A stretch of 18,789 bases of DNA, from NCBI RefSeq assembly GCF_029504745.1, contig NZ_JAQFIQ010000045.1, positions 1 to 18,789 on the forward strand. Reading direction: 5' to 3'. This stretch comes from Breznakia sp. PF5-3. Its GTDB lineage: Bacteria > Bacillota_I > Bacilli_A > Erysipelotrichales > Erysipelotrichaceae. Below are positions 139 through 18,789 of the stretch, in pieces. The translations under genes and the position numbers were made by a program. Position 1 is the stretch's first letter, and every line of letters begins with the position of its first letter. A model generated the notes under the pieces. The model did no database searches. It saw nothing but the letters and a program-made list of their open reading frames with translations, and was not told where the DNA came from.

Positions 139-3100
139 TTATGCTTTTCTTTTTCTTCCTACTACAAAGATTCCTAACATGGATACACCAAGCATGATTA
201 TCAACTTTTCAATATTACTTTCATCACCTGTACTTGGTGAATATGTTGCTGTCATTTTACTAGGTTTTCTTTTATCCTTTGATGGACTGCTTTGCTTGTT
301 TTTTTCAAATTTCCAAACACCTTTAAATTTCTCATCTGCTTTATTTATTGTTTTTGTGTTTTCATCATAGCCTTTAAATGTCCACACTCCATCATTGACA
401 CTATCTACATACGTTGTTGTACTTGGTAGAGTTGCTGATACCGATTCTTTATTTACTAAATTCATTATATCTTCTGGTAAATAACTATCAATTGCGGTTG
501 GCAAAGATAAACCGTCGGTTCCACTTTCAAATGTATGAACTGCTTTATATTTATTTGCTTCAAATTCCCAAACACCCTTAAACTTCACATTTGCTTTATT
601 TATTGTTTTTGTGTTTTCATCATAGCCTTTAAATGTCCACACTCCATCATTGACACTATCTACATACGTTGTTGTACTTGGTAGGGTTGCTGATACCGAT
701 TCCTTATTTATTAAATCCGTTATATCTTCTGGTAAATAGCTATCAATTGCTGTCGGTAAAGCTACTCCACTTGTCCCACTTTCAAATATATGAACTGCTT
801 TATATCGGTTGATTTTAAATTCCCATGTTCCTTCAAAATTTACATCCGCTTTATTTATTGTCGTTGTTGTGACATCATAACCCTTAAATGTCCATACTCC
901 ATCATTGACACTGTCTGCATATGTCGTTGTAGTTGGTAGGGTTGGTGTTACAGCTTCTTTATTTACTAAATTCGTTATATCTTTTGGTAAATAACTATCA
1001 ATCGCGGTTGGTAAAGCTACCCCTTCAGTTCCACTTTTAAAACTATGAGTTGCTTTATATTTGTTTGCTTCAAATTCCCATATACCTTCAAAATTTATAT
1101 CCGCCTTATTAATCGTTTTAATAAGCGCATCGTACCTTTTAAACGTCCACACTCCATCATTGATACTATCTACATACGTTGTTGTCGTTGGCAAGGTTGG
1201 TGTTACAGAAGTTTTATTCACTAAATTCGTTACAACACTTGGTAAATAATCATTAATTGCAGTTGGTAAAGCTACTCCTTCGGTTCCACTTTTAAAGCTA
1301 TATGTTGCTTTATATTTATTTGCTTCAAATTCCCATGTTCCTTCAAAATTTACATCTGCATTATTTATTGTCTTTGTTGCAGCATCATAATTTTTAAACG
1401 TCCATACTCCATCATTAATACTATCTGCATAGGTTGTTGTCGTTGGTAAAGTTGGTGATACAGACGCTGTATTTACTAGATTTGTTATATCTTCTGGCAA
1501 ATAGTCATCAATTGCGGTTGGTAAATCCAACCCTTCGGTTCCACTTTTAAAACTATGGGTTGCTTTATACGTCTTCTTTATACCTAACAATATATCTTTT
1601 GAAGTATAATAATCTTTACTAAAATCAGCTACAACTTCTATTTCTGCCAATTTCGTATCCGGATTATACCATGAAGAATTTGCTCCATCATCACCATCTG
1701 CAAACGCCTCTACTAACGTTATTGGTGATGATACAACCTTTACTGTATACTTTCCATCCGATGGAACAGCAAAGCGATATTCCCCATCACTATTTGTTGT
1801 TGTGATACTGCTATCTGGTTGATTATCTATTTCAACACCATCTTTGTACACTTTTAATTCAATTCCTGCTTTTGGTAATTCTAAAATTCGATCATAAAGT
1901 GCATTTTCAATTTCATCATACCAAGCATGTCCATATAATTCCATATCCGTTAATGTATATGTCATTAAAGATGTATGATACCCAACATTACTTAACCAAT
2001 CATTATTAGCTTGTCTTTGAATATTGCTGTAATAGATTGTACTTGAAGTTTGTTCTCCAACAACACTTTTATCTTCACTTAATGCACATTTTATCTCAAA
2101 ATCATAAGCTTCAAAAGGCTTAATATTTTTTACGATTACTTTTATCATTGTTGCTGCTTCCAATTCTTCTAATGTTGTTGCAGCATTCCATTCTTTATAT
2201 TCACCTGTAGGATCTTCTAATCCACTATTTAAGTTATTCATACTTGGTGTTGTAGATGTTGAATAATAAAGCGTATATTCAACATCACCAGTTGCTGAAT
2301 CCATACTACTAAAATCATAGCCTATCGCATTCATTGAAAAATCATCCGCTGCTGACTCTTTTTCATCAAGTCCTTCAAAGTAAGTATAAGTATTTCCTTT
2401 TTTAGGAATTGGAATATATACAGAGTAATTGTAAATTTCATTACTTCCTGAAGTAATATCACCAAAAATGTTTGCTTTCATACTAAATAAATTATCAACG
2501 GTTGTGATTGCTTTGCTACTTACAGCTGTTCCTTGATCATATGGAGCCTTCGCAAGAACCGACCCATTGATTCCAGTTCTTAATCTCATTTGAATACTAT
2601 GTGTTGTCGTAACATCTGCATGAAGCATTCTATTTTTTCCAGTCGTTTCATTAAAGAATTCTTCACCAAAAGGAGCCCCTGTTTTAGTTGTATCTTTCGA
2701 CTCTATAGAATCTCCCGTCTCTACATCATAGTCTTTTTCAAAATCATAATAAGAACCATCTCGATTTGAATCATATGCGCTATCCATCCAACTTTCTAAT
2801 ACAGGTTTTGCTGTATGTATAGCCTCTGCATTAGGGCTTACATATAAATCAAAAGTCTTCGTAAAGTTTGTATTTCGTTCAATCCCTTCTAAACAACCAC
2901 TATAATCAACAATTAAGTATCCGTACTCTATACTTCCAGAACTCAACTCTCCTGTTCCAGGAGGTAAATATACAACCGTTGCCCCTTCTGGAAGTCCGCC
3001 AATACTATCTTTTACATATGTGAAATCTTTATGAATTTTATAATAAATTGTTGGTCTAATTTTTAATTCAGAATCAATATCTTTTGTTTCATCTGTAAAG

Positions 3101-6100
3101 TTGTATTTCTGTGTACTTGTCACCGTCAATGTATTTCCTTGATATGTACTTGTTGTACTCGCACTTCCTTTATAACTAATTGCTTCATTAAAAGAGTTTA
3201 CATACATAACAGGACGTGCTATTTTACTACTTCTTCCATTCGCATTCAATTCATACTTACTTCCATAAATATCATCAAAAGATAATGCTACTGCTACTTT
3301 TAATTGATCATAATTAACCCCTGTACCATCTTTATTATCTCCACTTAAATCACTTGTGGATCCATCAAACTGCCCTATTTCAACTTTTGATATCGGGTAT
3401 GTTTTTGGCAAGGCTGCATTAGCACGAGCCAATGCTACTTTTGGTAGTTTACTTGCAAATTGTGATTCTCTTTGCCACGTTGTAGCATTATTCACATCAT
3501 ATTTGCTTCCATTAGATCCCCAGTTTACATCATTTGGTACACTTACTTTAAGTGCTGTTATATAATCTCCATCCAAAACATTAAATTCTGGTACAAGTGA
3601 ACTCAATGTAAAAGGTTTTGTATGACTATCACTATAACGTGTATCCCATGCTGTAGGTTCGTACCAACCACTAGATTCTGATAACCAATAACCTGATGTA
3701 CAACTTCTTAACGCTCCAATATCCTCAAATGATTTCGTTACATATTCACCAGAACTTGATTCATAGTAAGTAAACTCAATATTTAAATATGATCTTTCAT
3801 CAATATAAATTGCATTTGTAAGTGCTAGTATTTCTTCATTTGTATCAGAAAAATCATAGATTACATTTTGATAATGCATCTGTTCCCCACTTGGGCTCTT
3901 TGGTTCTACAACACCTAAAATATGATCTTTTGCTGTTCTCGTTCCTACATTACTAAGTCCTGTAGCTACGGCATTCGGTGCTACATACCAATCTAATTCT
4001 GAAACACTTAATGTTTTTGGATAACTTCCAAGTATTATTTTTCGCGAAGTACCTACAACACTCGCTGGATGATATTCATGTGCTAAATCATCTCGATTAC
4101 AATCCATACTCACCGAATAAGATAAGCTTATTCCTGAACCTAGATCTTTTCCATTTATCTCTCCATCACTATTCTTGTCACCTATTACTGCATCATATCC
4201 CATATGTCCTGGTTTGATGGTCTTTGCATATAACCCTTGAACACATACAACCGAACTATTATCTGTAATTTCCCATGTATTTACATCATATAATGCTACC
4301 GTAATACTCGTCGCGTATGTTCCTCCGTTGGCAGCGATAATTTCATCCAATTTATATAGTTCACTCTCTTCAAGAACATTTCCATTTTGTCCACTTAGAT
4401 TTGAAACTACAATTCCTGGTTGGGTATCTCCTTCACTTGGATAACGAAAATAAGAAGCCGCTACTTTTTCACGATATGCTTCAGCATCATTTAAAACCTT
4501 ATGCTCTACTCCGTTCTCATCAACATAGCTAACTAATTGTTGTCTTGATGTTCCTACGCGATCAATCATTGCTACTGCATCACCTGAAATAGTAACCGTT
4601 ACAGGATTAAATTCTGGTGAAGTTGAAGGATATGTATTTCCTTCTGCGTCAATGTTATAGTCCATTGTCGATGCACGTTTTCGAATCCCATAAGAAATAA
4701 AACGAACACTATCTTTGTGATTATTTACCTCAACAGTTCCTGACCCATTGAGAAAGGCACTAGCATAAGAAGCATCTCCAACACCAAACAATTGTAAATC
4801 ATCTTTCTTTTCCGTTAACTTTATTACAATATCTTTTGTTATTGCTCCACCTTTCGATTGCAAATCCTTTGAATCCAATTCTCTTACTATTTTTGCTTCA
4901 TATCCATCTGGAATATCAGCACCAGTACTTGGGAACTTATCATATGTTTTCATCGTTGCATCAAACCAAACAATTCTTCCACCCGTAGTAATAGCAGTTG
5001 TCCAACTAAATTTATTATTTACAGGAATAATTTCTATTTTTGAAATATAGCCCCTTCCCAATTCACTTGAAGCATCATAAGTATCTCCATCACCAATATT
5101 CATAACTTTAAATGGTGTAGATTCATTGTCTTTATAAAATTGATAGATAAATCCTTGATCTTTTGTTGTTTTCAAACCTGTTAATGCGATTGGTGATAAT
5201 TCTTCTTTAAATGTATACGTCACCTTAAAATCTTCTTCAATTCTCCAACTTGTTTCTTTTCCTACATCAAATACCATTCCAAAACTAAGATCTTTTGTAT
5301 TATATCCTACTTCTTTACTCTTATACTGCTCTAGTTTTGTTTGCAACGTATTTCCTATATACGCTTCTCTAGAATGAAGATTTTCTCCCTCTTGCCAATA
5401 CAAATCACCATTTTTAAGCATAAAAGATACTTTATCACCAGTTAATGATTTTATACTTTGACTAGTATCAAAAAGCATATAGTCCATTGAAACTACATCA
5501 CTTGCTTCATATAATGTATTCTCTTCAATACTATGATATTTACTTTTAACACCTACTTTGATTGTTATGGTTCCTTCTCGCTCTAAAAAATCCATCCATG
5601 ATGCATTATCTGCTGCAGTCACATAATCCATTGCAGAATGAATATTAGCATATGGATTAAGCGTAATTGTATTGCCTGAAATTGTCCGACCAAGGTTTAC
5701 TTCATTTCCTAGTTTATCTTTAAACACAGCCGTTATATTTATAGGTTCAATAAAACAATTGGGTAATGGTATTTCTATTTTCATATCCGTTGTGAAATAA
5801 CCTGCTGTTTTTTCAATATCAATCATGAACATATTATTTGCTGCTGCAATTGTTTCTTCATTTGCTGATAAAGCCTTCCCATCAACTCTTCCTCCAAAGA
5901 CTGCCCCCAGCTCTTTTGGTGTAAGTTGTTTTGTTTCAATACTGTTTATAGAATAATTCGCTTCTTTCTTATTAACCGTAAAATCCATATAATTCGTATA
6001 TCCATCTTCACCTTCATCATATAATGTTCCGCGATTTGTATCATCGATATAATTACAATAATTTTGTAATCCAAAACGATATACTTTATCTTCACTCATA

Positions 6101-6714
6101 TCCTTTAAAATTCCTAAAGCATCTTGTTGAACTTCAAATGAAACAGCAAACATATTGATATCTTCATTTGGTAAATCCATATCAATTTGTTGTACACCTT
6201 CTGCTGTTGTTGTAATTTTTATATTCTTCATTTTTAATTCTTCTAACATCTTTGTAATTGTTGCATCATCTGCTGTCAGTGAAAAATGCTTTGGCACAGT
6301 AAAAACTAAGTGACGATTTACGCCACCTTCTGCTAATGACATTGGTGTTACTTGATACAAAACGGTAAATGTACGTGTCTGTAATGTTCCAACCGAAAAT
6401 GATGATGGATCTTTTAAAACTACATTGCTACTTGATAAATATACTCTATTCATCGCTGAGCGCATTTGGGTAGGAAGTTTTATTTCTTCCACATCAACTT
6501 TTTCATGACCCTCTTTTACCACTTCTTTTGTTTCTTCTTCAATATTTGTTTCTGTAACTTCTTCATTTCCTGTCTCTGTTACAACTTCATTTTGGGGTAT
6601 ACTGTCCTGTGCATTAATATACACAGATAACCCTTGTGTTACGATTAGCAAAATACTCATCATTATTATAATGAGCTGCATTCGTTTAACAAAATAATTT
6701 TTCTTTCTTTTCAT
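139..6714 (-). CDS. Giant cell-wall-anchored surface protein (2191 aa): signal peptide, orphan ~1550-aa region, CnaB-like module, 5 SHIRT-like repeats, SPSTG sorting signal
   Basis: A single open frame runs 139-6753. I place the start at ATG 6712-6714 because GGAGG (complement of 6720-6724) lies 5 nt upstream. The N-terminus MKRKKNYFVKRMQLIIIMMSILLIVTQGLSVYINA/QD reads as a Sec signal peptide (6610-6714). The C-terminus has SPSTG, then a hydrophobic helix, then GRKRKA. Confidence 0.93.
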   Translation of the reverse strand: MKRKKNYFVKRMQLIIIMMSILLIVTQGLSVYINAQDSIPQNEVVTETGNEEVTETNIEEETKEVVKEGHEKVDVEEIKLPTQMRSAMNRVYLSSSNVVLKDPSSFSVGTLQTRTFTVLYQVTPMSLAEGGVNRHLVFTVPKHFSLTADDATITKMLEELKMKNIKITTTAEGVQQIDMDLPNEDINMFAVSFEVQQDALGILKDMSEDKVYRFGLQNYCNYIDDTNRGTLYDEGEDGYTNYMDFTVNKKEANYSINSIETKQLTPKELGAVFGGRVDGKALSANEETIAAANNMFMIDIEKTAGYFTTDMKIEIPLPNCFIEPINITAVFKDKLGNEVNLGRTISGNTITLNPYANIHSAMDYVTAADNASWMDFLEREGTITIKVGVKSKYHSIEENTLYEASDVVSMDYMLFDTSQSIKSLTGDKVSFMLKNGDLYWQEGENLHSREAYIGNTLQTKLEQYKSKEVGYNTKDLSFGMVFDVGKETSWRIEEDFKVTYTFKEELSPIALTGLKTTKDQGFIYQFYKDNESTPFKVMNIGDGDTYDASSELGRGYISKIEIIPVNNKFSWTTAITTGGRIVWFDATMKTYDKFPSTGADIPDGYEAKIVRELDSKDLQSKGGAITKDIVIKLTEKKDDLQLFGVGDASYASAFLNGSGTVEVNNHKDSVRFISYGIRKRASTMDYNIDAEGNTYPSTSPEFNPVTVTISGDAVAMIDRVGTSRQQLVSYVDENGVEHKVLNDAEAYREKVAASYFRYPSEGDTQPGIVVSNLSGQNGNVLEESELYKLDEIIAANGGTYATSITVALYDVNTWEITDNSSVVCVQGLYAKTIKPGHMGYDAVIGDKNSDGEINGKDLGSGISLSYSVSMDCNRDDLAHEYHPASVVGTSRKIILGSYPKTLSVSELDWYVAPNAVATGLSNVGTRTAKDHILGVVEPKSPSGEQMHYQNVIYDFSDTNEEILALTNAIYIDERSYLNIEFTYYESSSGEYVTKSFEDIGALRSCTSGYWLSESSGWYEPTAWDTRYSDSHTKPFTLSSLVPEFNVLDGDYITALKVSVPNDVNWGSNGSKYDVNNATTWQRESQFASKLPKVALARANAALPKTYPISKVEIGQFDGSTSDLSGDNKDGTGVNYDQLKVAVALSFDDIYGSKYELNANGRSSKIARPVMYVNSFNEAISYKGSASTTSTYQGNTLTVTSTQKYNFTDETKDIDSELKIRPTIYYKIHKDFTYVKDSIGGLPEGATVVYLPPGTGELSSGSIEYGYLIVDYSGCLEGIERNTNFTKTFDLYVSPNAEAIHTAKPVLESWMDSAYDSNRDGSYYDFEKDYDVETGDSIESKDTTKTGAPFGEEFFNETTGKNRMLHADVTTTHSIQMRLRTGINGSVLAKAPYDQGTAVSSKAITTVDNLFSMKANIFGDITSGSNEIYNYSVYIPIPKKGNTYTYFEGLDEKESAADDFSMNAIGYDFSSMDSATGDVEYTLYYSTSTTPSMNNLNSGLEDPTGEYKEWNAATTLEELEAATMIKVIVKNIKPFEAYDFEIKCALSEDKSVVGEQTSSTIYYSNIQRQANNDWLSNVGYHTSLMTYTLTDMELYGHAWYDEIENALYDRILELPKAGIELKVYKDGVEIDNQPDSSITTTNSDGEYRFAVPSDGKYTVKVVSSPITLVEAFADGDDGANSSWYNPDTKLAEIEVVADFSKDYYTSKDILLGIKKTYKATHSFKSGTEGLDLPTAIDDYLPEDITNLVNTASVSPTLPTTTTYADSINDGVWTFKNYDAATKTINNADVNFEGTWEFEANKYKATYSFKSGTEGVALPTAINDYLPSVVTNLVNKTSVTPTLPTTTTYVDSINDGVWTFKRYDALIKTINKADINFEGIWEFEANKYKATHSFKSGTEGVALPTAIDSYLPKDITNLVNKEAVTPTLPTTTTYADSVNDGVWTFKGYDVTTTTINKADVNFEGTWEFKINRYKAVHIFESGTSGVALPTAIDSYLPEDITDLINKESVSATLPSTTTYVDSVNDGVWTFKGYDENTKTINKANVKFKGVWEFEANKYKAVHTFESGTDGLSLPTAIDSYLPEDIMNLVNKESVSATLPSTTTYVDSVNDGVWTFKGYDENTKTINKADEKFKGVWKFEKNKQSSPSKDKRKPSKMTATYSPSTGDESNIEKLIIMLGVSMLGIFVVGRKRKA
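142..240 (-). other. C-terminal sortase sorting signal with the non-canonical pentapeptide SPSTG
   Basis: SPSTG is encoded at 226-240, followed by DESNIEK, the hydrophobic stretch LIIMLGVSMLGIFVVG (157-204) and the basic tail RKRKA. This is the classic tripartite sorting-signal layout, with (S/P)PxTG in place of LPxTG. Confidence 0.8.
295..1569 (-). repeat. Five in-frame tandem repeats of exactly 255 bp (85 aa), SHIRT-like stalk domains
   Basis: Repeat units are 1315-1569, 1060-1314, 805-1059, 550-804 and 295-549. Each starts YKA(T/V)(H/Y)xF(K/E)SGT and contains LPTAI(D/N)xYLP, TLP(T/S)TTTY, NDGVWTFK.YD and F(E/K)G.W(E/K)F. The two distal units share a 93-nt identical block (337-429 = 592-684). 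Confidence 0.95.
1570..1938 (-). other. CnaB / SdrD-B-like beta-sandwich module just upstream of the repeats
   Basis: The motif GIELKVYKDGVEIDNQPDSSITTTNSDGEYRFAVPSDGKYTVKVV resembles the T(D/N)xxGxYxF..(L/V)xxGxYxV signature of Cna-B-type stalk domains. Assigned by eye only. Confidence 0.5.
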
Positions 6715-6981
6715 TTCGCCCTCCTCATAAATCCCATACATATGAGATTCCAAACTTAATTTATTACTAATTATCCTTCCCTAAATCCTGTCTGCTTTTG
6801 CATATAAATGTTTTCCTCCATATCTCTTTTTTTACCCCCTTTGCATGGTTTTTCATTTATGTACAATTAATTCATCCTTTCTTTAATCCTTACCTTTCAT
6901 TAATTAGACAGTTCTTTTCCGAATATCGTTCGACTTTTTTGAATATTTTTCATTTTTCTTACATTTTGATGCAAATATAAC

Positions 6982-7031: not shown

Positions 7032-8117
7032 TTATGCTTCTTTCTTCTCTTTCCAAACCAAAAACTTCAACATTGATTTAATGGTTTTAAAAATATAAGA
7101 CCGTGTTTCTTTATCCAACGTTTTAATTGATTTAAAAATAATAGAAGCATTTTGTTTCCAAGAAGAAGTAAACTCTTCCAAAGTTTTCGCATCACACCCT
7201 CGATAAATATCATATACACCTTCCACAAATTTCTCTTTATCTTTTGTATCAAGTGTATCTAACCAGCGATTCAATTTATAATTCATACGCATTAAGCTTT
7301 TATTCGGTTTTTCCAAATATATGAAATCTCCATTCTTAACTTCCCAAGAAAACGGATCGTGTTGTGTAATCCATATATTTTTACTGCGAATAATTGTATA
7401 ATCACTTTCTTCTTCAAACAAAATTCCTACCATTGATGATTGTGGCATAATTTTAATCACTCGCTCTTTAATATTTTGATAAGCACTACTTTGCCTAATC
7501 TCACTACGAAATCCTGGACCATCAAAACTATAAATAAGTTTTATTTTATCTTGTAAAGTTGTATTGATATGCATTGTTGAATACATTGCAATATTTCCAC
7601 CTTTTGAATGTCCACCAACAATTATATTACCATCTAATAAAGGTAGTATGTGTTCTAAATATCGAACCCCTGCTGTTTGTGATGGAATTGGCGATTGAAA
7701 TAACATATTAAAATCTTCTTTCCACCCTACAATCGTAGAATCTGTTCCTCTAAAAACAATATAGGTACACTCTTGCAGATAAAAAGTTACTGCAGAAAAT
7801 TGTTTTTCGCTAATTTCATCAATGTGATTGATATAGTAATTTAAATGTAAATGAGAATAACGCTTACTACTAGCAATAGCTAACAGTAAGCGTCTATTTT
7901 TCCCACCATTTAGAATACTCTTTGCTAGCACATTTAAATCTAATGCTTTTACTATTTGTTGAATTGATACCTTTCGCTTTTGCTCACTAATGTGAGGAAC
8001 ACTTTCAAAATCAATGTAAGATAATTGTGCTAATACCAATGCATCGACATTATTAAAAGGCTTTTCTAAAAAAGTTTTATTTTTATACTTTTTAACATAA
8101 TAAATAATATCTTGCAT
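7032..8117 (-). CDS. DUF2974 / Mbeg1-like alpha/beta-hydrolase (lipase-like)
   Basis: 361 aa. The N-terminus MQDIIYYVKKYKNKTFLEKPFNNVDALVLAQLSYIDF is typical of this family. The nucleophile elbow GGHSKGGNIA fits GxSxG. GGAGG lies 4 nt before the ATG at 8117. Confidence 0.75.
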   Translation of the reverse strand: MQDIIYYVKKYKNKTFLEKPFNNVDALVLAQLSYIDFESVPHISEQKRKVSIQQIVKALDLNVLAKSILNGGKNRRLLLAIASSKRYSHLHLNYYINHIDEISEKQFSAVTFYLQECTYIVFRGTDSTIVGWKEDFNMLFQSPIPSQTAGVRYLEHILPLLDGNIIVGGHSKGGNIAMYSTMHINTTLQDKIKLIYSFDGPGFRSEIRQSSAYQNIKERVIKIMPQSSMVGILFEEESDYTIIRSKNIWITQHDPFSWEVKNGDFIYLEKPNKSLMRMNYKLNRWLDTLDTKDKEKFVEGVYDIYRGCDAKTLEEFTSSWKQNASIIFKSIKTLDKETRSYIFKTIKSMLKFLVWKEKKEA

Positions 8118-11939: not shown

Positions 11940-13073
11940 CTATATTACATTTTTACGAGTTTTTTTACTAATCAATATCGCTAGCACAAAAAACAAGATT
12001 CCAAAGCCTATTAGAATTGCCATATTTTGAAAAATAGGATCTACAAATTTAGCATCTAAAGATGTTAAGTTATAAATGCGATCATTACTATTCACAAACC
12101 AATAAGATGGAATAAACTTAGATACCATCAACACAGAATCACTCAACATCGATTGTGGTACAAAACAACCTCCAAGAAATGCTAATCCTAAACATAGAAT
12201 ATTTGAAATTCCATTGATTGCTTCAGCTTTTTTAATTGCACTTCCAATCAAATAAGATAACCCAAGGCAAGGGAATAAGAGAGCTACTAAATTTAGTATA
12301 TACAAATATGAACCCGTTGCTTTCATTCCATCACCAAAGAAAACATATGCAAAGATTACAGACACTACAAACAATACAACACCTAGTACTCCTGCCCCCA
12401 TACTCAATTGTACATTCATTTTCAAATTTGATATAGGAGACACTACATTTCTTCGCTTTATATCCACTTTATTAAGCGATACCATAACAGCACCAATACC
12501 CCAGATAAGTGAACAGAAGAATGAGTAACATAGGAAATTGAAATAGAAATGTATTGGTTCTGTTTTTTCACCTACTATGTTTTCAGAACTTACTTCCAAT
12601 GCAAGATCTTTATTCGCTTTCTTAACCGCTTCTTTTATTGAAACATCACCATGCGCATAATATCCACGAATGGTATTTGTAAAGGATTCTGCATAAGAAT
12701 CTACGATGTATGCACTTGCCGAATCCGGCACCTGCTTCTTTTCCAAAGCAATTTCTTTGTTTTGCTTGATTTGCCCTTCATATCCTTTAGGAATATACAT
12801 GACATACTCTATATCTTGATAAAACAGAGCATCCTCAATCATATCTTCATCAATATCTTTGACATTTGTATTCCCTGCCATATACTTAATCAACGCTTTC
12901 GAACTCTCACTTTGATCTTTATCAACAATAGCAATATCTGCCTTTTGAATTACAAATTGATCTCCATTGCTTTTCACAAAGATAATTGAAAAAGAAAAAG
13001 CTATAAATAACGTCATGAATACACTTACTTTATTTTTATTAATAATTTGGAAAAATAGTTTAAATACTTGCAT
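11940..13073 (-). CDS. ABC-2 type transporter permease (large extracytoplasmic loop after TM1)
   Basis: 377 aa. TM1 is VFMTLFIAFSFSIIFV, followed by a soluble loop of about 150 aa and then five C-terminal TM segments. GGAG lies 8 nt before the ATG. The gene overlaps the upstream gene by 14 nt. Confidence 0.85.
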   Translation of the reverse strand: MQVFKLFFQIINKNKVSVFMTLFIAFSFSIIFVKSNGDQFVIQKADIAIVDKDQSESSKALIKYMAGNTNVKDIDEDMIEDALFYQDIEYVMYIPKGYEGQIKQNKEIALEKKQVPDSASAYIVDSYAESFTNTIRGYYAHGDVSIKEAVKKANKDLALEVSSENIVGEKTEPIHFYFNFLCYSFFCSLIWGIGAVMVSLNKVDIKRRNVVSPISNLKMNVQLSMGAGVLGVVLFVVSVIFAYVFFGDGMKATGSYLYILNLVALLFPCLGLSYLIGSAIKKAEAINGISNILCLGLAFLGGCFVPQSMLSDSVLMVSKFIPSYWFVNSNDRIYNLTSLDAKFVDPIFQNMAILIGFGILFFVLAILISKKTRKNVI

Positions 13074-14187
13074 AAGCTTTTCTCCTTAATACATTATATG
13101 AAATAATTAGGGCAATAATTCCCATTCCCACTAGAATTGCCATGTTGATATATACCGGAGAAATATCTTCGTAATAATACAACATATTAAAACTGTTGGT
13201 AATCAACGTTGCAGGATTGATATATTTAATAAACGGAACACTTTGATTTAAAATATATGGCATATTACTAGCCATCATACCTGCCAAGAAACAACTAAAT
13301 AAACTTCCCATGCTTATGATGGTGATATTTGTATTTTCTTTTAACTTTGAAATACATCCTATCATAATTCCCATTCCTAAACTCATCAATACTCCACATA
13401 AACTTACCCCAATTACTTGTGGAAAGTAAGATCCAAAATCAACGCCTAAAACTAAAATCAAATAAGCAAAAGTAATTGCTAATTCCACTACCATTAAAGT
13501 AAAGGTTACTAAATAATCAATAAACACTAACTTCATTTTATGCGTTGGTGCAATGTTTAAACGAATTGCCCGATCACTTTGATTCGCTTGTGTATCACTG
13601 ATACTTTTTAACCCCCAGAAACCTCCATACATACAAGTCATAGCAATAATGGTATAAAAGTATTGCATCGTTGGATCAGAAGACCCTGCATTTGATCCAT
13701 AATCCTTTACAAGCACCTTATTTTCAATAAGATCCGTGATTACCATATCATTCATTTTTTGAGGATTCTCATTTGCAATTGTATTCACTGTAGCATTGAT
13801 TCGCAAATACGATTGTACTACTTCTTTTAAAATTTGTGTTTCCAAAGTATCATTACGATACAGTACGGTTGGTTTATCGCTACTCACTAAAGCCGCTTCA
13901 ACTTCACCATCTTTAACTAGTTTCTTAGCCTTTTTTTCACTTGTATAAGTTGCATCTAAGATTTGATTATCCCCTTCTTTACTCAATTCCTCAACGACTG
14001 CATTAAAATCTTTATTCCCATTATCTACAACCGCTACCTTAATAACATCTAAGTTGCTTTCACTACCTAAATTTGAAAAAGCAAAAAAGAATAATGTTGC
14101 TAAACCAATAGGAAACAACAATGACCAAAATAAAATGGTTTTATCTTTTATAAAACAAATAAATCGATATTTAAATATATGAAACAT
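13060..14187 (-). CDS. ABC-2 type transporter permease, paralog of the downstream permease
   Basis: Same topology as 11940-13073. The start is ambiguous. The GTG at 14194-14196 directly abuts the ATPase stop. The ATG at 14185-14187 has AGGTG 6 nt upstream and is preferred. Confidence 0.85.
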   Translation of the reverse strand: MFHIFKYRFICFIKDKTILFWSLLFPIGLATLFFFAFSNLGSESNLDVIKVAVVDNGNKDFNAVVEELSKEGDNQILDATYTSEKKAKKLVKDGEVEAALVSSDKPTVLYRNDTLETQILKEVVQSYLRINATVNTIANENPQKMNDMVITDLIENKVLVKDYGSNAGSSDPTMQYFYTIIAMTCMYGGFWGLKSISDTQANQSDRAIRLNIAPTHKMKLVFIDYLVTFTLMVVELAITFAYLILVLGVDFGSYFPQVIGVSLCGVLMSLGMGIMIGCISKLKENTNITIISMGSLFSCFLAGMMASNMPYILNQSVPFIKYINPATLITNSFNMLYYYEDISPVYINMAILVGMGIIALIISYNVLRRKAYASI

Positions 14188-14196
14188 AAGCGACAC

Positions 14197-15129
14197 CTAA
14201 TCCCTTAATTCTTTTCCTGTGATTTCCAAGAAAACATCATTTAATGTTGGCGTTTCACTATATACTTTATTAAAGTCTATCTTATTTTCTTTAAAATAAG
14301 ATAACAACTCCAATAGTAATCCATTATTCTTCGTAACTTCAATTTCTAATAATTGATTTTTAAAACTTGCATCATTTACATCTTTATGGCCTTTTATATA
14401 AACTAAAACATCATCTTCTAAAGCATCCATTTCAAACTTAATTTTTTCTTTCACTTGAATTGAATTCTTTAATACCTCTTTTGTTCCACTAGCGATTTCT
14501 TTTCCACTATCCATAATAATAATGCGATCACAAAGTTGTTCGACTTCTTCCATGTAATGTGTCGTATACACAATCGTTGCTCCCTTTTTATTCAACTCTT
14601 GAATATTCTCCAAGATATGATTTCTTGATTGTGGATCTACTGCCACAGTAGGCTCATCTAAGATAATCAATTTTGGTTTATGAGCAATTCCACAAGCAAT
14701 ATTTAATCTTCTCAGTAAACCTCCACTTAATTCTTTAGGATATTTTTTCTTATAATCATTTAACCCTACAAATGTTAATGCTTCCTCAACATATTGTTGA
14801 CACTGTTTACGATCACTTATGTATAATCCACAAAAATAATCTACATTTTGAAATACTGTAAGTTCTTCAAAAACAGCTACATTCTGCATTACAACACCAA
14901 TATCCTTTTTTATATCATATGAACTTGCTGTCATATCTTTTCCAAAAATTTTAATAGTTCCTTCTTCATGTGTTAACAATGCTAACAAACAATTTATTGT
15001 CGTTGTTTTACCACTTCCATTAGGCCCTAACAAACCTAAAATTTCCCCATCCTTTACTTCTAAATTAAAGTGATCTAATGCTTTAAAATCACCATAATAT
15101 TTTACTAAGTCCTTAATTTCTACTATCAT
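14197..15129 (-). CDS. ABC transporter ATP-binding protein
   Basis: 310 aa. Walker A GPNGSGKTT, signature LSGGLLRRL, Walker B LIILDEPT, H-loop TTHYMEE, plus a C-terminal accessory domain of about 90 aa. Confidence 0.93.
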   Translation of the reverse strand: MIVEIKDLVKYYGDFKALDHFNLEVKDGEILGLLGPNGSGKTTTINCLLALLTHEEGTIKIFGKDMTASSYDIKKDIGVVMQNVAVFEELTVFQNVDYFCGLYISDRKQCQQYVEEALTFVGLNDYKKKYPKELSGGLLRRLNIACGIAHKPKLIILDEPTVAVDPQSRNHILENIQELNKKGATIVYTTHYMEEVEQLCDRIIIMDSGKEIASGTKEVLKNSIQVKEKIKFEMDALEDDVLVYIKGHKDVNDASFKNQLLEIEVTKNNGLLLELLSYFKENKIDFNKVYSETPTLNDVFLEITGKELRD

Positions 15130-15131
15130 AA

Positions 15132-16061
15132 CTACCTATCCTTTCTCGTTACCTCTACAATTCCACAAAGAATTCCTGCTAATGGAAATATAATCCATCC
15201 TGGATGCCACCAGTGAAGTAAAAATCCTAATACTAAATAAATGGCTGTTGCAGAAAGCATAATAACTCCGTGAATTGCCCCATCTTCTTTCTCTCTTGTT
15301 GTCCCATTACTTCCTACTCTTTTCTTCTCATCAATAAAAACTTCATATGCTTCCGTACTACTACTAGATGTAATAAACATTGCTACAGCAACACTAATAA
15401 TAAAGAAGAAAACAAACCCTGCAATTCCATCTGTTAATATAAATTCAACAAGTGGATAAATTGCAACTGATATAATACACAACAGAACCCCTAAAGCAAT
15501 TGGCAATGCTTGCTTCTTTTTCGCATCCAAATACCGTTTTTGTAGTTCTACCTTTTTACTACTATCAATTACTGCATCTTTGACCATCGCGTCATAATAC
15601 TCAGCACGCATGCCGAAGATAATGAAGATAATTACCGCAACAGCAATCAATCCAAAGAAAACAATTCCTGTAATAATATTTCCAAATTTTCCTGAGATAA
15701 AATCTTGGAGCATTGATGATATTCCAACGGCATTGATACAAAGCATAACACCAATCGCTATCATTATCATAAATGTCCTTTTCCATTGGACATATTTCTC
15801 AATTTCTTCATCACTTAAATAATTGATTTCTTCTTGGTTTTCTTTATTTGGATCAATATCCAATTCTTTCAATATTTCATCCATATCACCAAATTCATTA
15901 ATCACACGTTTGCTAGCTTCTGCTTCATTGATACCTTCATCAATGAGTTCTTGAAATTTTTCTTCCATATGATCTTGAATATTTAATTTCATTTCCACAA
16001 CTTCTTTTGTCTTTGGTAAGTCCTTAAACATCTGATCAATATACGCTCTAATTGTTTCCAT
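15132..16061 (-). CDS. Polytopic membrane protein with an N-terminal helical prefix domain (DUF1700-like PadR partner)
   Basis: 309 aa. The soluble N-terminus METIRAYIDQMFKDLPKTKEVVEMKLNIQDHMEEKFQELIDEGINEAEASKRVINEFGD is typical of proteins encoded directly after PadR genes. At least 6 hydrophobic segments follow. GGAG lies 8 nt before the ATG, and the gene overlaps padR by 14 nt. Confidence 0.75.
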   Translation of the reverse strand: METIRAYIDQMFKDLPKTKEVVEMKLNIQDHMEEKFQELIDEGINEAEASKRVINEFGDMDEILKELDIDPNKENQEEINYLSDEEIEKYVQWKRTFMIMIAIGVMLCINAVGISSMLQDFISGKFGNIITGIVFFGLIAVAVIIFIIFGMRAEYYDAMVKDAVIDSSKKVELQKRYLDAKKKQALPIALGVLLCIISVAIYPLVEFILTDGIAGFVFFFIISVAVAMFITSSSSTEAYEVFIDEKKRVGSNGTTREKEDGAIHGVIMLSATAIYLVLGFLLHWWHPGWIIFPLAGILCGIVEVTRKDR

Positions 16062-16389
16062 CCGCTAATCTCCTTATAAATCTGTTAATTACATCTTTTG
16101 TGACTTCCCACTCTTCACATTTTTCTTTATAATATGTTATTCCCTGATTAGTTATTTTATAATATGTTCTTCTTTTTCCAAATGTCTCATTTCCATGATA
16201 AGAAACAATATACCCTTTTTTCTCCAACCTATTAAATGCCGAATAAAGGGTTGTCTCCTTGATAATATATTTCTTTTCTGAAATATCTTCTATTTCTTTT
16301 GAAATTTCATATCCATAACTATCTTTATCTAAAATAATCGATAAAATAATGAGATCATTGTATCCACGAATTACATCACTACTGATCAT
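16048..16389 (-). CDS. PadR family transcriptional regulator (short, PadR-2 type)
   Basis: 113 aa. The winged-helix motifs are YGYEISKEI and LYSAFNRLEKKGYIVSY. The ATG at 16387-16389 has GAGG 7 nt upstream; the ORF track used the GTG one codon earlier (16392). Confidence 0.88.
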   Translation of the reverse strand: MISSDVIRGYNDLIILSIILDKDSYGYEISKEIEDISEKKYIIKETTLYSAFNRLEKKGYIVSYHGNETFGKRRTYYKITNQGITYYKEKCEEWEVTKDVINRFIRRLADGNN

Positions 16390-16420
16390 CACATTACCTC
16401 TCTTTTCTCACCACTTGTTT

Positions 16421-16479: not shown

Positions 16480-17037
16480 TTATTTTGTTTTTTCTTTCTC
16501 TAAAATCTCTATCATTTCATTCGCCCATTCAATGCACATTTTATAATAATAATCTCCATATCTTGCTGTCATTTTCCAATACAATGAGCGATTGCGATCT
16601 TTTTCATTTTCTACAAATTTTTCAATATTACTATCTATTTTTTCTAATCTATTCAAGGTAGCTTCACACCTTGCTTTATATTCTTTAAATAAAAGGATAT
16701 TTTCATCAATTTTGTTTTCCCCAAGAAAAAATACTTTAATCAAAAAGAGATTTCGAATCCGCATTTCTTTTTCAATAAAATCTTTATCTAACCACTTATG
16801 CAATTCTTCTCTTCCTAATTCTGTAATCGAATAAACCTTACGGTTTGGTTTATCCTCTTGATATACAATATGCGAAGTTAACCAACCCACCTTTTCCATA
16901 CTCGTCAATTCTTTGTATATCTGACTTGTTTGCGTATGCCAAAAATTGTTTATCGAATGAGAGAAAGTACGATTTAAATCATAACCACTTTGATCCCCAT
17001 AACTCAACAACCCTAATAATCCATATTTTGCAGACAT
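16480..17037 (-). CDS. PadR family transcriptional regulator (long, PadR-1 type with C-terminal helical domain)
   Basis: 185 aa from the ATG at 17035-17037, with GGAGG 5 nt upstream. The ORF track extends to 17058. Motifs: YGLLGLLSYGDQSGYDL, IYKELTSMEKVGWLTS, and a helical C-terminal extension of about 90 aa. Confidence 0.85.
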   Translation of the reverse strand: MSAKYGLLGLLSYGDQSGYDLNRTFSHSINNFWHTQTSQIYKELTSMEKVGWLTSHIVYQEDKPNRKVYSITELGREELHKWLDKDFIEKEMRIRNLFLIKVFFLGENKIDENILLFKEYKARCEATLNRLEKIDSNIEKFVENEKDRNRSLYWKMTARYGDYYYKMCIEWANEMIEILEKEKTK

Positions 17038-17062
17038 AATTACCTCCATTAATACCATTTGG

Positions 17063-17106: not shown

Positions 17107-17197
17107 TGCTTCCTAGCAGATTCGATTTCATATCTAGTCGTCTATCATTGATAAATATATTTCAAACGTTATGAGTGCTATCCTTTTATTTCAAATA

Positions 17198-17234
17198 AAA
17201 ACATCTTATTTATTGTTAATAGATAAGATGTTTT
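17198..17234 (-). terminator. Rho-independent terminator after the sigma-fusion gene
   Basis: A perfect 12-bp stem, AAAACATCTTAT (17198-17209) with ATAAGATGTTTT (17223-17234), and a 13-nt loop. On the minus strand the stem runs into UUUUUAUUU. It starts 41 nt after the stop at 17276. Confidence 0.7.
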
Positions 17235-17275
17235 CAAAAAATGATAATAAAAATCAATATTTTTTTACAGCCTAT

Positions 17276-18556
17276 TTATTTTATTTCTATTTCCAATATA
17301 TTTCCTGCATAATCGCCAACATAAAGTATATACTTTTTTCCTTCTATACATTGAATTGAAAGCAGGTTTGTTTGTTCATCATACATGTATCCTTCACTTC
17401 TTATTCCATCTATTAATAATGTGATATTATTAGGATTAACGTTTGAGAGATCATCATTTAAGCGTATTACGAAATAATTATTTTGATCAGATTGCGTATA
17501 TCCTGTAGGACTATTATAGTCAATATTAGAAACAACTATTTCTTTTTCATCTATCGTTTCTCCATCTTTTTCTAAACTACATATATAAGTTCCATTTTCT
17601 AAGATTTCATTTGTTTCAACACCATTGATTAAAATTCGATCATATTCTTTATTTGTTGTTTCGATTTCAACATCTAATTTTTGATTACGCCAGTTTGTAT
17701 CATAAATTATATCTTTTATTTTTGCTTTTTCTATCTGTACTTCTTTCTTTATTTCCATCGTTTTTGATGTCACCTCAGCTTCATGCTTTGGATTATAGAG
17801 CAGACTAGAAATTACAGCTGCAACGATAATGGTTGTTGAAATCATCAATGCTTTTGCTCTAGTTGTTGCTTTTCCTTTGCTTCCTATTGCAATACTTGAA
17901 TCATCTCCTAAAGATTTTTTATATAACATGCGATATGCATTAATGAAAAAACTTGGACTCAAGAAAAGCAATCCATATGTTCTAGGTGATATTCCCTCTT
18001 TTTTTAATTCTTTTTTCAATGATTCGCGGACTTTCGTCAGTCTAGAATTTACAGTTCCCCTAGGAATTTCCAATATGGAAGCTATTTCATCTATTTTTAG
18101 CCCTTCGAAATAACGTAACATTCCCACACTCTTATACGTAGGTTTCATTGTTGATAAAGATTTCCCAACGATTTCCATCAACTGCTTTCGATCTATAACT
18201 TCTGATACTTTCGGTTGTTTATTATCACCGAAATCATCAATATCCATATCTTCGCCAAGATCCTTAATTTTAGAATTTTTATTATATTGATTTATACATT
18301 TAGTATATGTAATTCTTCGAATCCAGGAATGAAATGCTTTAGGTTCTTTCAACTCGTTAATTTTTTGATGTACTTTAATAAAAACTTCCTGTGCTATATC
18401 TTCTGTTGATCCGTTATTATTGAAAAATTGATTTACCACATAACAAACATACTTAAAATAGACTTGATAAATTTCTGTAAATGCACTTTCATCCCCGTTT
18501 TGTGCTCGAATAATAACTTCTTTTGAAATCATTTGTCGTTTCTTAACCATTTTCAT
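17276..18556 (-). CDS. ECF-type RNA polymerase sigma-70 family factor fused to a TM helix and a C-terminal extracytoplasmic domain (426 aa)
   Basis: Region 2: FTEIYQVYFKYV...EDIAQEVFIKVHQKI...FHSWIRRITYTKCINQY. Region 4: KSVGMLRYFEGLKIDEIASILEIPRGTVNSRLTKVRESLKKEL. TM helix: ALMISTTIIVAAVISSLLY (17795-17851), preceded by TTRAK. A beta-rich domain of about 172 aa follows (17279-17794). GAGGG lies 8 nt before the ATG at 18556. Confidence 0.88.
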   Translation of the reverse strand: MKMVKKRQMISKEVIIRAQNGDESAFTEIYQVYFKYVCYVVNQFFNNNGSTEDIAQEVFIKVHQKINELKEPKAFHSWIRRITYTKCINQYNKNSKIKDLGEDMDIDDFGDNKQPKVSEVIDRKQLMEIVGKSLSTMKPTYKSVGMLRYFEGLKIDEIASILEIPRGTVNSRLTKVRESLKKELKKEGISPRTYGLLFLSPSFFINAYRMLYKKSLGDDSSIAIGSKGKATTRAKALMISTTIIVAAVISSLLYNPKHEAEVTSKTMEIKKEVQIEKAKIKDIIYDTNWRNQKLDVEIETTNKEYDRILINGVETNEILENGTYICSLEKDGETIDEKEIVVSNIDYNSPTGYTQSDQNNYFVIRLNDDLSNVNPNNITLLIDGIRSEGYMYDEQTNLLSIQCIEGKKYILYVGDYAGNILEIEIK

Positions 18557-18615
18557 CTTTTCCGCCCTCTTACCGTCCTTCTTTTAGTCTTCTTTAAATT
18601 GATAATCGTTCATTT

Positions 18616-18643
18616 TTTATAAACTATTCTAATAAGAGGACAA
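18616..18643 (-). promoter_or_regulatory. Candidate sigma-A promoter of the sigma-fusion gene
   Basis: On the minus strand, TTGTCC (complement of 18638-18643), a 16-nt spacer, then TATAAA (complement of 18616-18621), about 60 nt upstream of the ATG. Confidence 0.35.
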
Positions 18644-18700
18644 ATGTTTTCATAAAATGTACCATTTTTTTCTTAAAAAAATAAAAAAGATCGCTTTTGA

Positions 18701-18789
18701 TGTGAACCCATAAAGTTGGACACGTTATTATTTAAGCGCTTAAACTTGAGGATTGTTCTCTGTATGCTACAGGGGATAATCCTTTTAGT
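18701..18789 (-). mobile_element. Right end of an IS3-family insertion sequence (truncated by the window edge)
   Basis: The terminus at 18701 reads TGTGAACCCATAAAGTTGGACACG inward, a TG-initiated IR reminiscent of the IS150/IS3 group. It is followed by the transposase 3' end. Confidence 0.6.
18732..18789 (-). CDS. IS3-family transposase (OrfB/integrase), C-terminal 18 codons only
   Basis: The minus-strand translation is LKGLSPVAYREQSSSLSA followed by stop (TAA, complement of 18732-18734). The K-x-G-x-SP-x-x-YR tail is characteristic of IS3-family DDE transposases. Confidence 0.6.
   Translation of the reverse strand, partial: LKGLSPVAYREQSSSLSA

Follow-up and report, generated by a model that had tools for sequence, protein, structure and literature searches.

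Here, we show that a gene of Breznakia sp. PF5-3 encodes, in one polypeptide, an extracytoplasmic function (ECF) sigma factor domain, a membrane anchor, and an outward-facing immunoglobulin (Ig)-like domain. The gene occupies positions 17276..18556 on the minus strand of an 18,789-nucleotide stretch of contig NZ_JAQFIQ010000045.1 (NCBI RefSeq assembly GCF_029504745.1), the whole of which is called the window below. We propose, with a probability of roughly 0.5, that its product is a one-component fused sigma/anti-sigma-like protein that is freed by regulated intramembrane proteolysis. The same layout is found in a family of gut Firmicute proteins, defined below, whose genes are linked to genes for diverse surface proteins.

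A sigma factor, a membrane anchor, and an Ig-like ectodomain in one polypeptide

Scanning the window (31.6% G+C) for open reading frames (ORFs) revealed an uninterrupted frame of 426 amino acids (aa) plus stop codon. At 100% identity, its product matches a protein annotated as no more than "RNA polymerase sigma factor [Breznakia sp. PF5-3]". The identical protein is present on five contigs from several assembly blocks, and its 90% identity cluster holds two member sequences. The initial annotation of this DNA had read sensor and sigma factor as fused in a single 426-aa frame. Sigma domain, transmembrane (TM) helix, and ectodomain indeed lie in one ORF, unbroken here and kept in homologs; the coordinates had been given in forward numbering and no strand was named, and we place the gene on the minus strand, to which all coordinates of its parts given below refer. 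That annotation had also said what would overturn it, namely a frameshift dividing ordinary sigma and anti-sigma genes, the absence of a TM helix, or a match to a fused ECF group that is already characterised. The frame is maintained in homologs, a TM helix is predicted, and no curated equivalog family was reached.

Sigma regions 2 and 4, previously recognised within aa 1-187, were found by Pfam, NCBIfam, and structure comparison alike. Pfam assigned Sigma70_r2 to aa 30-96 (18269..18469; 38.1 bits against a cut-off of 24, E 1.4e-9), Sigma70_r4_2 to aa 130-180 (18017..18169; 39.4 bits against 25.7, E 4.5e-10), and Sigma70_ECF to aa 14-185 (39.4 bits against 21.1); we take the ECF sigma domain as aa 14-187. 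In NCBIfam, the sigma70-ECF model TIGR02937 scored 88.5 bits (cut-off 42.9), and none of the equivalog cut-offs was reached, PRK12518 coming first with 106.6 against 208 and SigW scoring 93.9 against 209. Regions 2 and 4 are spaced by about 30 aa, and the fold matches that of ECF sigmas. Region 2 of the model aligned with sigmaE region 2 at a TM-score normalised to the target (TMt) of 0.83-0.85, and Foldseek matched the sigma part of the full AlphaFold model to AlgU, SigW, and sigmaE structures at E ~5e-9. Pfam gave no match to Sigma70_r3 or Sigma70_r1 in this protein. Having regions 2 and 4 and no region 3 or 1.1, it belongs to the ECF (group 4) sigma-70 factors.

The sigma domain is followed by a cytoplasmic linker of 48 aa (aa 188-235; 17852..17995), in agreement with the earlier estimate of about 45 aa, which contains "GLLFLSPSFFINAYRMLY". 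The AlphaFold model of the whole protein, computed with 10 homologs, is of mediocre quality (predicted local distance difference test [pLDDT] 66.8), with a helical sigma part, disorder over aa 218-274 including the TM helix, and a beta-rich C-terminus; it predicts short helices at aa 191-215, the linker having a pLDDT of 59-66. Conserved residues in homologs mark the linker as a candidate cis-inhibitory or tethering segment. It carries a semi-conserved helix of the form G-I-S-P ... S-P-x-h-h-x-x-A-Y ("GISPKNYG..LSP..AY.ML" in close homologs), and G188, P201, Y208, and L211 are invariant among 10 close homologs.

The best Kyte-Doolittle 19-mer of the protein, at aa 236-254 (17795..17851), has a score of 2.11. 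Four K/R and no D/E are found in the 15 positions ahead of it, and the net charge of the 15 that follow is 0, which predicts a single TM helix in N-in/C-out orientation. Hydropathy and charge counts thus bear out the earlier call of a TM helix at this place with basic residues on its N-terminal side, and the charge bias, in the window protein and across the family, likewise puts the C-terminal domain outside the cell, as the positive-inside rule had suggested. Beyond the membrane lies a spacer of about 25 aa (aa 255-279; 17720..17794) that is disordered (pLDDT < 50), variable, and abundant in charged residues (Lys/Glu). Its low pLDDT and low conservation mark it as a candidate site-1 protease target.

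The ectodomain proper consists of two Ig-like beta-sandwiches with 13 beta-strands in the AlphaFold model (aa 280-426). Modelled alone, aa 272-426 reached a pLDDT of 92.9 and a predicted TM-score of 0.75. Sandwich 1 (aa 280-345; 17522..17719; pLDDT ~95) is followed by sandwich 2 (aa 346-426; 17279..17521), which was identified with AlphaFold and Foldseek and bears a D-x-x-x-P junction and a D-Y-A-G-N motif. The initial annotation had described aa 255-426 as a beta-rich domain that it did not recognise. Its beta character stands, the first ~25 aa being the disordered spacer, and AlphaFold, Foldseek, and the profile search described below now identify it as a tandem Ig-like module common to giant surface proteins.

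Foldseek comparison with the PDB returned generic two-Ig modules (probability 1.00; TM-score normalised to the query [TMq] 0.37-0.54), among them MDGA1 Ig1-2 (E 2.8e-4), the adhesin SraP, and the Ca-binding adhesin SiiE (TMq 0.54). The giant adhesins SiiE and SraP resemble the ectodomain in the tandem beta-sandwich fold of their Ig-like repeats, whereas the window protein has two modules only and these are joined to a sigma factor. No significant sequence relatives of the ectodomain were found in the PDB, and Pfam gave neither a consistent match nor an Ig family at threshold; over aa 188-426 it gave no credible match, including to FecR or a carbohydrate-binding module (CBM). Since the fold matches only generic tandem-Ig structures at modest TM-scores, no ligand can be inferred, and we rejected the assignment of a specific ligand from the fold search.

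A family of fused sigma factors in Breznakia and Coprobacillaceae

We define here a family of proteins composed of an ECF sigma domain, one TM helix, and a C-terminal double Ig-like domain with N-I-D-x-x-x-P and D-x-A-G-N motifs. An exhaustive profile search with the ectodomain yielded 325 representatives of 50%-identity clusters; the window protein, which is part of the profile alignment, matched the profile at E 1.8e-56. From the best 150 of these 325 matches and the close sequence homologs, a set of 94 proteins of 380-490 aa was assembled, to which the family-wide frequencies in this work refer. All 94 have a sigma domain and the best hydrophobic segment ahead of the ectodomain, and in 86 of them the N-terminal flank of this segment is more positive than the C-terminal flank. 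The nine family proteins checked with Pfam are all ECF sigmas.

Ten full-length homologs with 35-41% identity, from Breznakia pachnodae, a Coprobacillaceae metagenome-assembled genome (MAG), and metagenomes, retain all parts, and their alignment has 21 invariant positions in the C-terminal domain. Across the family, N321, G322, N344, and I345 of sandwich 1 are conserved at 93-98%, D346 and P350 of sandwich 2 at 100%, and D415 and N419 at 99%. Median identity to the window protein is 33% for the sigma domain and 34% for the ectodomain; linker, TM helix, and spacer are far less conserved, the spacer having a mean top-residue frequency of 0.17 and a median length of 26 aa. That sigma domain and ectodomain have diverged equally indicates that the fusion is old and under selection. 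The linker is 45-65 aa long throughout the family, and the TM helices are rich in Gly, Ser, and Thr, 65 of the 94 having at least two Gly.

Named members all belong to Breznakia or Coprobacillaceae. Paralogs are common, with at least five in B. pachnodae and at least two in Breznakia sp. PF5-3. In a genome scan seeded on sigma-domain peptides, full-length relatives were confined to B. pachnodae, B. blatticola, and a single Coprobacillaceae MAG. Four other ECF sigmas (P0011, P0012, P0014, and P0015; 27-35% sigma-domain identity) have one hydrophobic segment followed by long unrelated C-terminal domains, in one of them a Bact_surface_Ig-like domain. Because these four share the layout, the architecture of a sigma domain, a TM helix, and a variable outer domain may exceed the family of the window protein.

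Linkage to surface-protein genes

All 12 other family loci examined contain an adjacent, same-strand gene for a surface protein with a signal peptide, located downstream of the sigma gene in 10 and upstream in 2, with gaps of 2-103 bp. Downstream partners in B. pachnodae are proteins of 1019 aa (L001, Flg_new), 549 aa (first copy in L003, Flg_new), and 396 aa (second copy in L003). Further downstream partners comprise >937 aa in a metagenome (L005, SpaA and Big_8), 1048 aa in a Coprobacillaceae MAG (L007, Big_8), at least 1990 aa in B. blatticola (L010), 509 aa beside the Breznakia sp. PF5-3 paralog (L088, VWA), 616 aa in the MAG assembly GCA_964370395.1 (L089), 376 aa in a metagenome (L090, Bact_surface_Ig-like), and >672 aa in assembly GCA_030266565.1 (L094). 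The upstream partners are a 718-aa protein in a metagenome (L093, Flg_new) and a fragmented surface-protein gene in a Coprobacillaceae MAG (L011).

The partners are diverse and have only repeats and anchors in common; those with a complete C-terminus end in a hydrophobic anchor and a basic tail. We considered whether the downstream neighbour might be a hidden anti-sigma factor and rejected this, as all eight examined open with a signal peptide and lack any cytoplasmic domain. Homotypic sensing by an ectodomain shared between sigma factor and partner was not supported either, given that neither the partners nor the SHIRT-domain protein encoded in the window scored above 4.3 bits with the ectodomain hidden Markov model. 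A motif of the type V-N-T-x-D, V-N-S-G-D, V-S-T-V-D, or A-T-Y-D recurs ahead of the partner anchor (genes at 9341-12400 in L001, 6088-7737 and 9325-10515 in L003, 9329-12475 in L007, 7302-8831 in L088, and 9295-10425 in L090), and the SHIRT-domain protein ends in "SPSTGDES...RKRKA". The pattern resembles a sorting signal other than LPXTG and may serve a dedicated sortase.

Putative promoter and terminator of the window gene

Upstream of the window gene and of the four closest homolog operons, we found the motif AAAAARTGAAC-N18-KACWAA, with an ECF-like -35 GAAC and a -10 of the CGAC/CTAC type, an architecture that resembles B. subtilis ECF promoters. In the window, TGAACGATTATCAATTTAAAGAAGACTAA (18584..18612), preceded by an A-tract, is the sole exact match to TGAAC-N18-KACWAA, and matches with one mismatch are no commoner than chance. 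Each close-homolog operon carries the motif once, at the operon start and nowhere else in those loci; in L093 it precedes the surface-protein gene, which is the first gene there. Its conservation fits an autoregulated operon of sigma factor and surface protein, and we regard the copy in the window as a putative ECF-type, autoregulatory promoter. Close homologs have a second, weaker conserved element (GTGTCTATAAGG / TGTGTCTATGTAG / TTGTCCTCTTATTAG) ~50-60 nt upstream of TGAAC, at ~7850-7870 in L001, ~4615-4635 and ~7855-7875 in L003, and ~18630-18650 on the minus strand of the window, which could act as an additional promoter or bind a regulator.

A ribosome-binding site, AAGAGGG (18565..18571), can be read 8 nt ahead of the ATG. 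Past the stop codon, a hairpin with a 14-bp stem and a U-rich tail (17190..17236; minus strand; RNA fold -20.1 kcal/mol, z = -3.17) is likely an intrinsic terminator, which would make the window gene monocistronic; a G+C-based terminator scan did not flag this hairpin.

Split versions and other contexts of the ectodomain repeat

The Ig-like repeat of the ectodomain also occurs 5-26 times in giant surface proteins of 900-4500 aa, with weak Big_3_2, BiPBP_C, and DUF7743 signals. Five such proteins (P0034, P0039, P0067, P0070, and P0088), of ~2000-3400 aa, have up to 26 tandem copies. In addition, it forms the outer part of two separate N-in single-pass proteins, P0124 and P0133, with E-values of 6.9e-14 and 4.1e-12 against the ectodomain profile and, for P0124, an hhalign probability of 93.9%. 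In locus L092 (gene pair at 1299-2770), the P0124 gene shares 4 bp with the end of a 172-aa gene that has clear Sigma70_r2 and r4_2 domains and whose product shows 23% identity to the sigma domain of the window protein (E 1e-11). Locus L091 (1056-2502) has the same two-gene layout, with a 166-aa upstream gene whose sigma-domain matches are sub-threshold. The ectodomains of the single-pass proteins in these loci contain two or three copies of the repeat. Among the short matches, only these two pairs, which are more distant, look like genuine two-gene systems, and their layout looks like that of a classic sigma/anti-sigma operon; they may represent the ancestral, unfused state or have arisen from the fused family. 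Since the same repeat is found in split sigma/membrane-protein pairs, the C-terminal half of the window protein can be viewed as a fused anti-sigma-like sensor.

Other candidate split genes were rejected. P0025 is a contig-edge fragment. In L011 (2988-4304), the linker reads TAT-TAA-ATG, an in-frame TAA before a pre-existing Met that divides the protein into a 221-aa sigma and a 216-aa TM-Ig part; it is a single nonsense codon in a locus with other broken genes. In L093 (3375-4681), a frameshift lies in the linker. Both breaks probably reflect decay or sequencing error; if expressed, the products would release the sigma domain from its tether.

Flanking genes in the window

The initial annotation had placed the gene between a PadR regulator and the end of an insertion sequence (IS), with no separate anti-sigma gene nearby, and this description held: none of the window genes is anti-sigma-like. 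The PadR gene lies downstream (16480..17058; 192 aa, Vir_act_alpha_C domain) and has its own promoter-like site. Upstream, the window breaks off within an IS3-family element, whose end (approx. 18690..18789, minus strand) encodes a transposase C-terminus with 73-77% identity to Bacillus/Priestia plasmid transposase ends. Its inner boundary falls between ~18675 and 18703, and a terminal repeat, GTGTCCAACTTTATGGGTTCA, is visible. The element thus ends ~135-150 bp upstream of the start codon and ~60-90 bp upstream of the putative promoter, its transposase being co-directional with the sigma gene. Contigs of other assemblies of this organism (e.g., L004) break there, which suggests that the element is multi-copy.

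The longer, 192-aa PadR sits between the sigma gene and an apparent operon at 11940-16392 (minus strand) encoding a small PadR of 114 aa, a 309-aa multi-pass membrane protein with a weak DUF2207_C match, an ATP-binding cassette (ABC) ATPase, and two permeases of the ABC-2 type. At 139-6753 (minus strand) lies the gene for a surface protein of 2204 aa that has five SHIRT domains as well as an SdrD_B-like region, and an Mbeg1-like (PF11187) protein is encoded just upstream of it on the same strand (7032-8117). The SHIRT-domain protein was rejected as the missing partner or target of the sigma factor; it is 10.5 kb away, and no promoter motif is near it, even with one mismatch allowed.

A proposed release mechanism and its alternatives

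In the mechanism that we propose, the tandem Ig-like module outside the cell would stand in for the sensor part of an anti-sigma factor, and the tethered sigma domain would be inactive, possibly held as well by the conserved helix past region 4. An extracellular cue would act on the Ig-like module, a site-1 protease would cut the exposed disordered spacer, and a site-2 intramembrane protease of the RasP/RseP type would cut the TM helix. The freed sigma fragment of ~25-27 kDa could then bind core RNA polymerase and fire the TGAAC-N18-KACWAA promoter of its own operon. As family operons carry a gene for a surface protein that is secreted, anchored in wall or membrane, and equipped with adhesin-type domains, a signal at the surface would be coupled to expression of that protein. 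The window copy, with promoter and ORF intact and no partner, would regulate itself and perhaps also, in trans, paralogous operons with the same motif. The disordered spacer and the Gly/Ser/Thr-rich TM helices are features expected of proteolysis substrates and support the release model, as do the relationship to the split sigma/membrane-protein pairs and the precedent of IutY, described below.

Several observations weigh against this proposal. No linked protease gene was present in any locus examined. Pfam found no anti-sigma domain in the 48-aa linker, which is short and poorly conserved family-wide. Of its residues, only P201 (83%) and G188 (69%) stay conserved, P201 alone strongly, and the mean top-residue frequencies of its two halves are 0.28 and 0.15. 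A class I anti-sigma domain, that is, a cytoplasmic helical domain of ~80-90 aa binding sigma2 and sigma4, does not fit into the 48 aa on hand, and a shorter, CnrY-like class II segment is possible. The linker (aa 188-235) contains neither Cys nor His with which to build a zinc anti-sigma motif, and it does not match zf-HC2. The window protein's own TM helix has no Gly. The promoter motif is clear in the closest subfamily alone; it was not found upstream of the divergent family genes in L088, L089, and L090 and is likewise absent in L010 and L011. Finally, the window copy has no adjacent surface-protein gene, the sole solo copy among the 13 loci, and this makes it atypical for the family.

The lack of a detectable anti-sigma domain or linked protease would be expected if the sigma factor were never released and, while tethered, recruited RNA polymerase to its own operon at the membrane, where transertion, the insertion of sigma protein and secreted neighbour during transcription, would hold the locus. 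The ectodomain would then modulate activity by conformational change or oligomerisation, as in membrane-bound regulators of the ToxR/CadC type. The apparent target is in cis, the motif being present only at the operon start and both operon products being membrane or secreted proteins, and a linker of 45-65 aa could reach far enough. However, the literature search provided no report of a sigma factor acting while tethered, and IutY of Pseudomonas putida, the only dissected fused sigma, needs cleavage by RseP (PMC5411451). A solo copy devoid of a secreted partner also fits less well. We consider permanent tethering unlikely, though deserving of serious attention. A stricter form, in which each paralog remains tethered, reads its cue via the Ig module, and activates its own operon only in cis through transertion, seems to us doubtful. 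If true, it would constitute a private, spatially confined sigma-promoter circuit, repeated at least five times per genome. Possible cues are Ca2+, a polymer of the wall or of the host, and the state of assembly of the paralog's own neighbouring adhesin.

The helix past region 4 might instead dock on sigma2/sigma4 and inhibit in cis, in the manner of the soluble extensions of ECF41/42, with no need for proteolysis. Its motif is conserved in close homologs and P201 persists family-wide, and contacts with the ECF core are general among C-terminal extensions (PMC7826278). The weak conservation of the linker and its low model confidence speak against this, and one TM helix would be a poor conformational conduit unless the protein is dimeric. 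We find this explanation improbable.

It is similarly improbable that the window copy is a stranded remnant, functionless or decaying after its partner gene was lost in an IS-associated rearrangement. The missing partner, the nearby IS3 end, a pre-TM linker ~10 residues shorter than in homologs, and the visibly broken family copies in L011 (nonsense codon) and L093 (frameshift) would agree with such a fate. Against it, the ORF is intact and so are promoter motif, ribosome-binding site, and terminator; the protein has all 55 invariant residues of the 10-sequence alignment, of which it is a member, and matches the strongly conserved positions of the whole family; and the identical protein recurs on five contigs. 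An assembly or frameshift artefact that joined ordinary sigma and anti-sigma genes is refuted by the same continuous frame in 94 proteins from many samples and by the five contigs from several assembly blocks, the broken versions known from L011 and L093 having no counterpart in the window gene.

Relation to known sigma factor systems

The closest experimental precedent is IutY (ECF243, FecI-like), a sigma/anti-sigma hybrid in which a single TM helix joins a cytosolic ECF sigma domain to a C-terminal domain outside the cytoplasm. Its outer domain is removed first, followed by site-2 proteolysis; Prc and RseP release a 23-kDa sigma domain, truncation causes constitutive activity, and IutY controls the adjacent gene (PMC5411451, PMC8999054). 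In view of this release by Prc and RseP, the statement in the initial annotation that the mechanism of fused sigma factors is largely untested was slightly overstated (PMC5411451, PMC8999054). The window protein is like IutY in its fused layout, and its family, too, has an adjacent gene. However, IutY is Gram-negative, has a FecR-like outer domain, receives its signal from a TonB-dependent receptor, and has the periplasmic Prc as site-1 protease. The window protein has no FecR-like domain according to Pfam and carries a tandem Ig-like ectodomain instead; in NCBIfam, the best-scoring models for its sigma domain are of the RpoE/SigW type rather than FecI. No TonB-dependent receptor gene was found in the window or in the 12 family loci, whose neighbours encode Gram-positive-type surface proteins with adhesin-type domains.

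Actinobacterial ECF48, ECF52, and ECF53 factors, such as SCO4117 of Streptomyces coelicolor, also combine an ECF sigma domain with C-terminal TM helices and an extracytoplasmic domain, and proteolytic activation has been proposed for them (PMC5826349, PMC8999054). They share with the window protein the lack of a separate anti-sigma gene and the C-terminal membrane extension. They contain a zinc-finger (ZAS-like) segment past the sigma domain, a region rich in Pro, and a domain that binds carbohydrate. The window protein lacks zinc finger, Pro-rich region, and CBM alike, and it differs from these factors in phylum, ectodomain, and neighbourhood. The re-classification of ECF factors names 19 groups that have C-terminal extensions, and the main text of that paper contains no Firmicute case of a single TM helix combined with Ig-like domains.

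The sigma domain itself is most similar to that of the SigW-RsiW and SigV-RsiV pairs (Foldseek E 6e-9 for the SigW-RsiW structure). The membrane part of these pairs has the same N-in single-pass topology, distributed there over two proteins and fused here. Anti-sigma factors of the RsiW/RsiV type have a four-helix cytoplasmic anti-sigma domain of ~80-90 aa, whereas only 48 aa separate sigma region 4 from the membrane in the window protein. SigI of clostridia is not an ECF sigma factor, and RsgI, which is made as a separate protein, has an N-terminal domain of its own and a juxtamembrane domain that cleaves itself; Pfam found no RsgI_N match in the window protein. The SigI/RsgI systems are alike in logic only, with many paralogous sigma/sensor modules per genome, extracellular beta-sandwich sensors, and linked genes for extracellular proteins (PMC10575876).

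Our literature search for membrane-tethered sigma factors returned nothing relevant. The architecture class is known, and in the literature searched its occurrence in this lineage, its ectodomain, the paralog expansion, and the one-to-one linkage to surface genes were without description.

Fused membrane-spanning ECF sigmas are known mostly from sequence catalogues, IutY alone having been dissected. The family described here provides a compact Gram-positive example with a confidently modelled ectodomain, several paralogs per genome, and an apparently simple output that consists of a single adjacent gene for a surface protein and a promoter that can be recognised. It makes the choice between release by proteolysis and tethered action testable. 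For annotation, our findings mean that proteins labelled just "RNA polymerase sigma factor" can carry a sensor domain. They also suggest that gut Erysipelotrichales may regulate single adhesin-like surface proteins via private sigma modules, which may be of relevance for host colonisation.

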